24,250 bases of DNA from a bacterium (lineage in GTDB: Bacteria; UBA8248). Under the pieces are notes generated by a model. The model saw only the letters and a program-made list of their open reading frames with translations, did no database searches and was not told the DNA's origin. Position 1 is the stretch's first letter, and each line of letters starts with the position of its first letter. The translations under genes and the position numbers were made by a program. The stretch spans positions 1 to 24,250 of the forward strand of contig CBDBZY010000053.1 of assembly GCA_965213685.1 (NCBI GenBank), written 5' to 3'. Shown piece by piece: positions 6,001 to 9,000 of this stretch.

Positions 6001-9000
6001 CCACATCCATGTTCTTGAGTGAGTTGAGGAAGTTGGTGTCGGCCATCATGCCTTTGGCCGACTTCCAGTTGATCTCCTTGAACCCTCTCATGATCACCAC
6101 ACACTCGCACACTGTCTGCACTGCTTGTGGAGGCTTAGCAAAGGATCTACAGGGAGAGGGGGGAGGGAGGGAGGAAGGGAGGAAGGAATGAAGGAAGGGA
6201 GGAAGGGAGGGAGGGAGGAAGGGATGAAGAAAGAGAGGGAAGGAGAGAGAAAATGGAGAGGGAGAGAAAGACAGAAGAGATTGGAGGGAGGGAAAAGAGA
6301 GAAAGAGGCACAATGAAGAGAAGTACAGCAAGATTGACATAAAGGTATACATGTACATAGGTACAGTACATACATTCTGCAGTAAGGACACACTGAAGGA
6401 AGAGAACAGTAGGAGAGGTAGGAAAAGATGTGCATGAGAAGCGTGGCAGTATGAAAGCTAGCTGAGCTTACACACCTGATTTCAGTAACATCATTCTTGT
6501 CAAGGTCATCAAGAGCCAATCTGGCCTCTTCCAGTGCAGGTAAGGCAGCAGCAAGGCCTTCCTCTGCCGCTTTCTTCTCAACTGCTATCACCTGGAACAG
6601 GGAGAAAGGGCGGGAGGCAGGGAGGGAGGGAAGGAGGGAAGGAGGAGGAAGAGAGGGAGGAAGAGAGAAATGGACAGTGGGAAGGGGAGGAAGGGAGGCG
6701 AAAAGGGATGATATCAACATAAGTGTCTGCTTTTGTAAGAAAGTACTTGCAAGTGCATGTGTATAACATATTACACAATGTATGTACATGTATATTCAGC
6801 CATTGAGACAAGGCAAAGCAAGGCAACTACGCCTAAAGACAACTCCTCTTTTTCCCAGGTGGGACTTGAACCCACGACATATTGCGTACTAGGCAGATGC
6901 TCTACCAACTGAGCCACCGAGGCAGCTCAGCTGGGCAGGCCAAATCTCCAAGGGTAAAGGCATGTACATGTACATACGTATATGACTGTACATACCTACA
7001 GAGTGCATAGTGATAACTGCATAAACAATCCATTCTTATGTACGCACCTTATTCTGTTCCTCCATCTCTGTGCTCTTTATCTTGGCCTCCTCCTTCTTCT
7101 GCTCCCCGATCTCCTGCTTGCTCGAGATGTCACTCAGCAGTGCATTGCAGGCCTCAGACTTCTCTGTCACCGCCACCTTCTGCACCTCCAGCTGGGCGTT
7201 GAGAACCTTAATCTGCTCCGAGGCCTCGTTCAGCTTCGTCAGACCTCCGCTCAGCCGGGAGCAAAGGTCGCAGACATACTTGTCTTTGTCTCGGAGGAGA
7301 GCGGTGTAGGAGCTGATGAAGTCCAGGTAGTTCTTGGGAGTGACGTGGTTGACTCTCCGCAGCTTCTGCTGGAACTCCTTGCTGAACTGCCCCACGGAGA
7401 GGTGGACGTGGACCACGTGGTCCACCACTGCCGGCTGGTGCTCGTCTGGGATCTGGTCATTCTGAAAGCAGGAGAGGATGTATAACACACAGTGTGTGTA
7501 TGCGAAAGAGCAGAAAAATATGTACATGTAGCTACTGTGTATATATACATGATGAAAAGGCTCAGGAATATTTTTAGAGAACCGTGAAAAACCGGCAGCC
7601 ACCCGGGACTGAACCAGGGGCCTCTAACAGTGCTCTACCACCTGAGCTATAGCCACCAGGTGACAGCCAGCCTTCACAATTCTCAACATCGCTCTGTATG
7701 TGCTGTCCATGTACATGTATACATATATATGCATATTATACAAGATGGAAAAGTGCCCATAAACTCTCATATCTGTACATGTACATACATGTACATGTAC
7801 GTACATATGCTATACATAAGTGGTTCATTGAACCTATGTACGTACATGTACATGTATGTTCACATCAGTAAGACTGATCTTCTGCATGTACGCATACATG
7901 TATGTGCAAGTACTCCTATAAGCCAAATGTCTACATGTACATATGTATATGTACTGTATGAACATAGCTAATAGCCTATGTACATATACACTGTAACACA
8001 TACAGTATGTATTGTACCTACATGTAGAGTGTGCAGTCTCCTGGGTGCCTCATGTCACATGCACATAATGTGTGCAGTCCATCACACCTGTTTACTTACC
8101 CCCAAACACATCACTCGACACACACAACTGACCTCTGCCAGGAACTGGCTGGCCACCGCGTGCAGGGCCTGCTTGGGCCAGGCAGTGAACCAGTCGATGG
8201 AGGTGTTGTTGACCAGGCCAGGGAAGTTCCTGCAGCGAGTCTTGAGGACCTCCCCAATGGGAGACATGCAGAGGACGATGTGCAGGTTGCCGGCACTCTT
8301 CTTGATGAAGTAGGACCACACGCTCTCCCTGGTCGGCTGCCTCCCCGCCTTCATCGCCTCATCCCGCACCTATGGACGTATGTATGCACATGAAGAGTTG
8401 GGAGCATGTGTTTAAGAAGTGGGTGTGGCACTGGCCCTACCACTGTCTGAATTGAGAAGGTTTGATCTCTTGAAACTTGAGGTACAGTTGAGAGGATACA
8501 TACATACACATGAGGAAAGGCTTGGGAATATTTTTAGAGAACCGTGAAAAACCGGCAGCCACCCGGGATTGAACCGGGGCCTCTGACTTTAGCTGTCAGT
8601 GCTCTACCACCTGAGCTATGGCCACCAGGTGACAGCCAGCCTTCACAATTCTCAATATCACTCTGTATGTGCCGTCAGAATCCCGCTAGGGATCGACCGG
8701 TAACTACTCTCCATCAGGGGAGGGGCCACACTGAGTGAAATATTCTATTTATTCATAACAGTGCACGTGAAGCTGGGTCTCCCTCTAGGGAGCCACCGAA
8801 CACAACACACAAGCTATGTTGTATGTGAGGAAAGGCTTGGGAATATTTTTAGAGAACCCTGAAAAACTGGCAGCCACCTGGGATTGAACCAGGGGCCTCT
8901 GACTTTAGCTGTCAGTGCTCTACCACCTGAGCTATGGCCACCATTACCAATGGCCACCACATGTACGTACGTATACCTACAGTTGTATGCATGTACATGT

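Follow-up and report, generated by a model that had tools for sequence, protein, structure and literature searches.

Why does a short, non-coding repeat carry the same tRNA-like module twice, in an insert somewhat longer than one repeat unit? This question is raised by a tandem block on the minus strand (8942-8511) of contig CBDBZY010000053.1 (C53) of assembly GCA_965213685.1, of which we analyzed positions 1 to 24,250 (the window). The assembly is deposited under a bacterial lineage (UBA8248), but the window is sponge-type host DNA that was binned with a symbiont genome. We consider it probable that the block is a copy of a tRNA-derived short interspersed nuclear element (SINE) which is prone to 5' truncation, is targeted to the hexamer ACATGT, and was copied from a multi-unit template, likely one supplied by head-to-tail master loci. 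The element is an unusual SINE with odd traits and not a new kind of element.

The block begins with a tRNA-like module (8868-8942, minus strand; pseudo-anticodon CTA), which forms the 5' end of the window copy and was recognized by ARAGORN and by the Rfam tRNA model (47.1 bits; cut-off, 29 bits). On the same strand there follow a G+T5 run with a tail that ends in ..CCTTTCCTCA (8826-8867, from sequence reading), a 198-nt spacer (8628-8825, from sequence reading and BLAST), a second tRNA-like module with the same pseudo-anticodon (8553-8626; ARAGORN; 47.4 bits), and a second G+T5 run and tail (8511-8552), the end of which is the fixed 3' end of the family, used by 70 of 79 independent groups of copies. 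Module and tail are 97.4% identical at the two positions (116 aligned nt), far beyond chance, and the modules start 316 nt apart by alignment and 315 nt apart by the ARAGORN starts. An earlier interpretation of this stretch, made from its letters alone (the sequence-only reading), had proposed this very layout with its 315-nt period, and ARAGORN, Rfam and the identity of the repeats bear it out. After the first tail, CACATA (8825-8820) is a decayed copy of the terminal CATGTA of the family; after the second, TGTGTATGTATGTAT (8510-8496) is a decayed ACATGT-type repeat. At the 5' junction (8934-8959, minus strand) sequence reading reveals a microduplication, TGGTGGCCAT..TGGTAA..TGGTGGCCAT, which is private to the window copy; the 10-bp duplication reported there earlier is real, with TGGTGGCCAT at 8959-8950 and again at 8943-8934 on the minus strand. 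A (CATGTA)n-type microsatellite (8960-9060; detected by TRF at 8990-9058 with a period of 6) abuts the 5' end of the block and is likely its target array.

The spacer had been taken for unique sequence. It is instead part of the family and is present in all copies longer than ~120 nt; its last ~49 nt (8628-8676), here termed the leader, are retained by most shortened copies. Two 5'-truncated solo copies found by BLAST lie in the window, both on the minus strand: one (7540-7707) consists of leader, deleted tRNA-like part and tail, and the other (13161-13289, approximate ends) is internally deleted as well. In both, the deletions affect the tRNA-like part, and the tail variant, ..GAGCCTTTTCATCA.., is unlike that of the dimer. 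They share a portion of the spacer, as had been noted, but this portion extends ~49 nt upstream of the tRNA-like part and not the ~80 nt originally given.

A blastn search of the assembly with the block returned 229 high-scoring segment pairs (HSPs) at 110 loci. Since contig C18 and other contigs hold segmental duplicates, we clustered the loci by their flanks into 79 independent groups, one of which is another repeat with no more than 61 nt in common. The host DNA analyzed amounts to 4.9 Mb, and 3.07 Mb of bacterial contigs served for comparison. The dispersed copies end alike at ..CCTTTCCTCATGTA and are shortened at variable 5' positions. For the 70 of 79 groups whose 3' end is the tail, lengths measured to this shared end span 42-547 nt and are most often 150-199 nt (23/70); at least 315 nt (one unit) is reached by 12 copies, at least 472 nt (1.5 units) by four and at least 551 nt (1.75 units) by none, the longest copy comprising 1.73 units. 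Six copies display a period of 299-316 nt. Copy numbers decay by half-unit steps as 45, 12 and 4; at this rate the sample should contain only about one copy with two or more units, and the upper limit of the tandem may lie above the 1.73 units seen. Summed depth along the spacer also drops from its 3' to its 5' side in four sequencing runs; e.g., in run X1 it is 3.0 million at 8640-8659 but 0.23 million at 8820-8839. Contigs from these runs are mostly 100-500 nt long, and their back-steps (296/310) and skips (305-323) were not counted as trimers or monomers because the modules are interchangeable. Neither two spacers one period apart nor a 27-nt spacer stretch had a match in the public metagenome and genome contig collections, and an empty-site contig for the window locus was not among the matches listed for the contigs of the four runs.

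The junction between the tail of one unit and the spacer of the next is crossed by 17 HSPs, which represent 13 independent loci with different flanks, the window included. It reads CCT.CA..TATAAC.TAGC at 12 of the 13 loci, with changes of the CpG type only, and contains an extra hexamer at one. The sequence-only reading had reckoned with a purely local event should this junction occur only in the window; 12 other independent loci carry it. Paralogous segments, among them segmental duplicates on C18, served as filled and empty insertion sites. A 415-nt dimer (C4:32439-32853) is missing from the paralogous sites C4:5385 and C16:7790, where ACATGT is intact: the empty site reads ..tggtgtACATGTattctg.., and at the filled site the element ends in ..CCTCATGT immediately before attctg. 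Four further filled/empty pairs place the insertion at ACATGT, one of them with a target duplication of ~15 nt that begins with ATGTA; over the five pairs, target duplications range from ~3 to 15 nt. The recurrent junction and the gain of the dimer as a single piece argue for insertion in one event, and together with copies of up to 1.73 units they call for a template of more than one unit. The one-and-a-bit unit is thus a property of the family, as had been suspected. The fixed 3' end, the variable 5' ends, the target duplications and the non-coding nature of the element point to retroposition by a foreign, target-priming reverse transcriptase (RT).

A preference for the hexamer is also evident at the other end of the insertions. 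A 5-mer of the hexamer repeat occurs within a 15-nt window at the 5' junction of 58 of the 79 loci, compared with 18 of 79 control windows placed 150 nt upstream and 9.8% of 20,000 random host windows. Runs of (ACATGT)n of at least 12 nt (two or more hexamers) number 1840 in the host DNA and 2 in the bacterial contigs, and loose ends of contigs from the four sequencing runs, at 8670-8677 and 8508-8516, are ACATGT-like too. Palindromic (ACATGT)n arrays are present in the window, e.g., at 8990-9058, 9221-9285 and 23001-23080, and several repeat families end at them. Among the matches listed in the literature search, no title or abstract linked ACATGT to retrotransposon targeting.

Most 5' ends cluster 38-63 nt upstream of the tRNA-like part, where the element resembles the hexamer repeat (..GGCACATACAGAG..), a pattern that would fit joining by microhomology. 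Seven of the 79 are found no more than 5 nt from the start of the tRNA-like part (~2.8 expected if evenly spread), weakly suggesting a real RNA end, but the CCAT found there also resembles the target. No accumulation of 5' ends marks the point at which a monomer RNA would be expected to start. The starts of four independent copies are, as in the window copy, only a few bases away from the tRNA 5' end, and others (C64:1536115, a C18 group and C41:224915) start farther upstream in the preceding spacer, so that the periodic structure extends beyond 1.4 units. None of the 79 copies runs past the usual 3' end into a next unit. First and second modules are 91.9% identical to each other, first modules among themselves 91.7%, second modules 91.7%, and the two modules within one copy 93.4%. 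Since modules do not differ by position, the source units must have been practically identical, which fits young or homogenized tandem masters, a template that is re-read by the enzyme, or a circle. Exceptions to the regular arrangement are a long copy with an off-register internal tail-to-leader join (C41:224915-225459) and two solo copies arranged in tandem via a microsatellite, with a different junction (C64:4376-4706). Fifteen neighboring pairs of loci lie within 1.5 kb, and the 110 loci include no head-to-head inverted pair closer than 322 nt.

The tandem habit recurs in a second family. ARAGORN recognizes 199 tRNA-like modules in the host contigs, and a second, unrelated superfamily (tRNA-Ala/Ser/Thr-like; 146 loci) is built from a leader of ~110 nt, the tRNA-like part, a run of T6-8 and a tail ending in ACATGTA, with microsatellite flanks and variable 5' ends. 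Three independent copies (C41:214475-215040, C64:340273-340838 and C18:81359-81855) are head-to-tail with a period of 303-307 nt and one shared junction; the 497-nt copy at C18:81359 is absent from eight paralogous sites and has a target duplication of ~8-9 nt. Further members of this superfamily occur in the window at 306-381, 3182-3257, 4694-4769, 6850-6924, 16623-16698, 19322-19395 and 23108-23183. Clustering of neighboring tRNA-like modules by strand was considered and rejected: neighbors shared a strand in 50 pairs and differed in 37 (p = 0.20).

The tRNA-like module of the block contains A and B boxes (TAGCTCAGGTGG and GGTTCAATCC, read by eye against the consensus), and the centroid fold of the sister module shows a cloverleaf; a T5/A5 hairpin in the tail is absent from the predicted fold. 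A run of at least four T follows 55 of 61 recognizable modules, with exactly five T in 48. Transcription by RNA polymerase III terminates at such runs and should end before the tail; the T5 run behind each module thus argues against the earlier suggestion that the tRNA fold is a simple promoter of the whole unit. The module has the appearance of a pre-tRNA that was copied together with its U tail and fused to ~38 nt, on which the priming end would reside. Every tail-ending copy has an uninterrupted tRNA-to-tail junction, which means that an RNA cut by RNase Z was not the template, and the RNase Z site coincides with neither end of any copy. A permissive Rfam scan of 8400-9050 gave 46 weak matches, of which only the two tRNA matches exceeded the cut-off; with E values up to 10, it revealed no ribozyme family, hammerheads included. 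The spacer folds with -67.7 kcal/mol (z -2.79; 1 of 200 shuffles as good) and contains a 61-nt double hairpin that is also present in another repeat family. In this third repeat (C16:54136-54196, C4:47848-47908, C64:1082540-1082599 and C64:1122217-1122274) the shared hairpin sits upstream of a different tRNA-like piece, and in one of its stems a T-A pair is replaced by C-G, both partners having changed, which hints that the hairpin is of importance.

We envisage that an RT would prime on a nicked ACATGT paired with the CAUGUA end of the RNA (target-primed reverse transcription), and that copying would run back along a template of two or more head-to-tail units, mostly stopping early. The 1.4 units of the window copy would mark where the cDNA stopped, close to or exactly at the 5' start of a tRNA-like module. 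Multi-unit templates would most likely come from head-to-tail master loci, which may arise as an insertion regenerates an adjacent palindromic ACATGT and the next copy lands in the tail of the previous one. Such an array could be transcribed through its T5 runs by read-through or from a host promoter, and each module (tRNA-like part, T5 and ~38 nt) would be a pre-tRNA with a U tail fused to the 3' end of a partner element. We favor master arrays because the junction is near-constant, 5' ends do not pile up at the monomer start, and the element inserts into its own tails.

We searched for the partner element that this route presupposes. The host contigs contain 107 RT matches. Ten long RT open reading frames (ORFs) were scanned; five have an APE endonuclease domain, one is Ty3/gypsy-like, and four consist of the RT alone. 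The 3' ends of eight RT loci could be mapped: three (L069, L071 and L075) have a (TAA)n end, and a CATGTA end is absent from all eight. No microsatellite lies within 2.5 kb downstream of 30 of 33 RT ORFs; 20 of 68 RT matches have one within 6 kb, and their inspection yielded no partner. The tail, searched alone, has no match outside the family in the 4.9 Mb. A 43-member repeat ending in ..TTCATGTA was rejected as a partner, as no long ORF appeared within a 6-kb extension. Domains of the GIY-YIG type are represented in the host contigs by three weak, short fragments with no adjoining RT ORF, and there is no intact Penelope-like element around these loci. Hammerhead_1 matches the host contigs twice, at C56:57792-57836 with 37.5 bits (above the cut-off) and at C41:335872-335916 with 29.9 bits (below it), with no retrozyme-type array of unit length around either; Hammerhead_3 has no match in the host contigs and none in the control genomes either. 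The sample of RTs is small, and a partner may exist elsewhere. Possibly active host elements are represented by open APE+RT ORFs (959-981 amino acids) of long interspersed nuclear elements (LINEs) and an open 1342-amino acid Ty3/gypsy-like pol ORF (loci C64:1412517-1415393, C64:482621-485533, C7:31887-34829 and C16:305029-309054).

Several observations weigh against a SINE copied from master arrays. No master array was found, and no locus in the 4.9 Mb exceeds 1.73 units; the same host contigs hold no autonomous partner with a CATGTA end or the tail of the family. The T5 after each tRNA-like part should stop RNA polymerase III. The lack of position-specific differences between modules also fits templates that are made afresh for each event, and the same tandem habit in two unrelated families implicates the enzyme no less than master loci. 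Furthermore, BLAST ends are uncertain by a few bases wherever element and target share letters.

Alternatively, each event might generate its own tandem through the action of the enzyme, in the manner of Penelope-like elements and non-LTR retrozymes (LTR, long terminal repeat). In this case the RT would begin on a multimeric or circular RNA at a CAUGUA within it, or switch between RNA molecules, leaving one at its 5' end and resuming at the 3' end of the next. Integration would produce partial tandems as a side effect, and the enzyme would bind the tRNA-like fold with its U5 as a handle. Two unrelated families that exceed one unit in the same genome, modules without a positional signature, the off-register join in C41:224915-225459, which resembles a template switch, the Hammerhead_1 matches elsewhere in the host contigs and the similar behavior described in the available parts of two reports on Penelope-like elements (PMC8557442, PMC11167929) speak for such a process. 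We nevertheless regard it as rather unlikely: the element itself contains no hammerhead or other ribozyme (E up to 10), none of the 79 copies has a 30-40-nt 'tail' extension into the next unit, no head-to-head inverted pair is closer than 322 nt, 5' ends do not pile up at a monomer RNA start, the junction is nearly constant, and the GIY-YIG matches are short fragments with no adjoining RT. A more far-reaching version, which we hold to be improbable, is that at least two unrelated sponge tRNA-like families spread via multimeric or circular RNA that a Penelope-like or as-yet-unknown RT reads from an internal CAUGUA onto ACATGT. They would be a ribozyme-free counterpart of retrozymes, with the pre-tRNA-like fold and U tail as the handle, and slippage of the enzyme on the hexamer would have seeded the very numerous (ACATGT)n arrays.

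The remaining explanations fare less well. The sequence-only reading had suggested a circular or multimeric intermediate in which the tRNA-like fold is the promoter and perhaps an RNase P/Z processing signal that replaces a ribozyme; taken literally, RNase P and RNase Z would excise a 315-nt circular RNA from a multimer at this fold. The good match of the fold to tRNA (47 bits), the A and B boxes seen by eye, the 7 of 79 5' ends within 5 nt of the tRNA 5' end (~2.8 expected) and the well-folding spacer (z -2.79) are in keeping with this idea, but every tail-ending copy keeps the tRNA-to-tail junction, the majority of 5' ends fall farther upstream, 38-63 nt before the tRNA-like part, and each module is followed by T5. 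With the RNase Z site at neither end of any copy and a weak excess of 5' ends at the tRNA start, the processing signal is not supported, and we judge the circle very unlikely. Two independent neighboring insertions, or a local duplication, confined to the window locus are hardly credible: nesting into a tail does occur (C64:4376-4706), but the identical junction is present at 12 other independent loci and a dimer was gained whole at an ACATGT site. The likeness to small LTR-type elements, i.e., terminal-repeat retrotransposons in miniature (TRIMs), Cassandra or plant-type LTR retrozymes with the tRNA-like module and tail as the LTR, does not go beyond the repeated terminal module that flanks a unique middle. 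The module starts with GGTGGCC and ends with CCTCA(TGTA) and not with TG..CA, module 1 is not followed by a tRNA-complementary stretch that could be a primer-binding site (PBS), and what precedes module 2 (..CTGGCTGTCACC) is no purine tract (polypurine tract, PPT). Moreover, 5' truncation occurs at all positions where complete LTR pairs would be expected, and the target duplications vary from ~3 to 15 nt. We consider an LTR-type origin next to impossible.

The family can be placed among known systems. Like tRNA-derived SINEs, the family is short, non-coding, dispersed, flanked by target duplications and dependent on a foreign RT; as in tRNA-derived and dimeric SINEs, there is a tRNA-related part with A and B boxes and there are two related modules per element. 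Alu and the mosquito Twin SINE are dimeric SINEs. Bov-A2 is a dimer of Bov-A (PMC5786205). The family departs from tRNA-derived SINEs in the terminator-like T5 run directly behind each tRNA-like part, in the leader that most copies have upstream of this part, in the lack of a fixed full length (up to 1.73 units, with modules that have not diverged), and in that no LINE with a matching tail was found in the 4.9 Mb. Microsatellite-specific non-LTR retrotransposons, reportedly described by Kojima and Fujiwara in 2004, likewise aim their insertion at a simple repeat, here ACATGT; they are autonomous LINEs, however, and none such was found here. According to the accessible part of one report, LINEs with a REL endonuclease target repeats such as microsatellites (PMC4640811).

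For Penelope-like elements, the available parts of PMC8557442 and PMC11167929 describe heavy 5' truncation, partial tandems and a microsatellite bias, as well as head-to-tail non-autonomous derivatives and internal initiation on multi-copy RNA. The behavioral likeness to Penelope pseudo-LTRs and non-LTR retrozymes that had been pointed out earlier holds, since the family shares the 5' truncation, the partial tandems gained in one event and a microsatellite bias that hides target duplications. As far as these parts go, it differs in having no hammerhead, no 30-40-nt extension, and no inverted head-to-head partner, and in a target that is a palindromic hexamer and not (TA)n, (CA)n or (C)n; similarity to an identified Penelope-like element was not seen in the host contigs, whose GIY-YIG matches are three weak fragments. 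With metazoan non-LTR retrozymes, as portrayed in the portions at hand (PMC7229834; bioRxiv 10.64898/2026.07.22.740005), the family has in common a unit size within 170-400 nt, the absence of LTR, PBS and PPT and target duplications of >4 bp, and, as far as 1.73 units can show it, the head-to-tail arrangement. Unlike the retrozymes in these portions, its unit has no type I hammerhead, and no more than 1.73 units, in place of long arrays, were seen in the 4.9 Mb. The proposed likeness to TRIMs and Cassandra fails on the missing TG..CA ends, PBS and PPT and on the variable 5' ends. No description of marine-sponge SINEs was among the matches listed in our literature search; the family may already be catalogued in Repbase or Dfam. 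The locus is a clean example of a SINE-like family that exceeds one unit and is gained in one event, in a phylum with mobile elements little described. That two unrelated families aim at a palindromic hexamer points to a retrotransposition enzyme which has a defined DNA target and tends to produce partial tandems, and this bears on the origin of pseudo-LTRs, retrozyme arrays and SINE-derived satellites.

The identity of the host rests on three lines of evidence. Minus-strand exons in the window match the dynein heavy chain domains AAA_7, AAA_lid_1/DYN_lid and AAA_8 (the latter over three exons), which places the tandem block in a dynein intron in sense orientation. Of the 71 contigs of the assembly, 49 look bacterial (~61-69% G+C) and 22, the window contig among them, are host-like (4,895,517 nt, 33-54% G+C) and carry microsatellites, SINE-like repeats and retroelement genes. 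Several of the public sequencing runs that contain the window stretch are labelled sponge metagenome, and in one of these (X7, share 0.30) we counted 10,551 contigs of the repeat family. Taken together, exons, contig set and runs identify the host as a sponge. Sponge-type animal DNA, which contains introns, SINEs, LINEs and an LTR element, thus makes up 22 of 71 contigs and 4.9 of 7.97 Mb of an assembly rated 94% complete and 3.7% contaminated; for databases this means that ~4.9 Mb of a 'bacterial' assembly are animal DNA, which marker-gene statistics did not reveal. Segmental duplicates are numerous on C18, where one insertion with its flanks recurs up to eight times, tens to hundreds of kb apart.

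Microduplications like that at the 5' junction of the block were found at 2 of 79 scanned loci in addition to the window, compared with 0-2 of 79 at shifted control positions; they are indistinguishable from chance, and we rejected them as a general mark of the family. In the window (8934-8959) and in the regions C4:32853, C64:914643 and C18:81855, the initial bases of the insert are duplicated over 9-16 nt, and one 5' microduplication was seen by eye in the second superfamily. The window also contains a 31-nt minisatellite of 47 copies (16849-18334), a 35-nt tandem repeat of 13 copies (11530-11981) and a 59-nt G-rich run (13076-13134; C-rich on the gene strand), which abuts a solo copy and would translate as a proline run in one frame.

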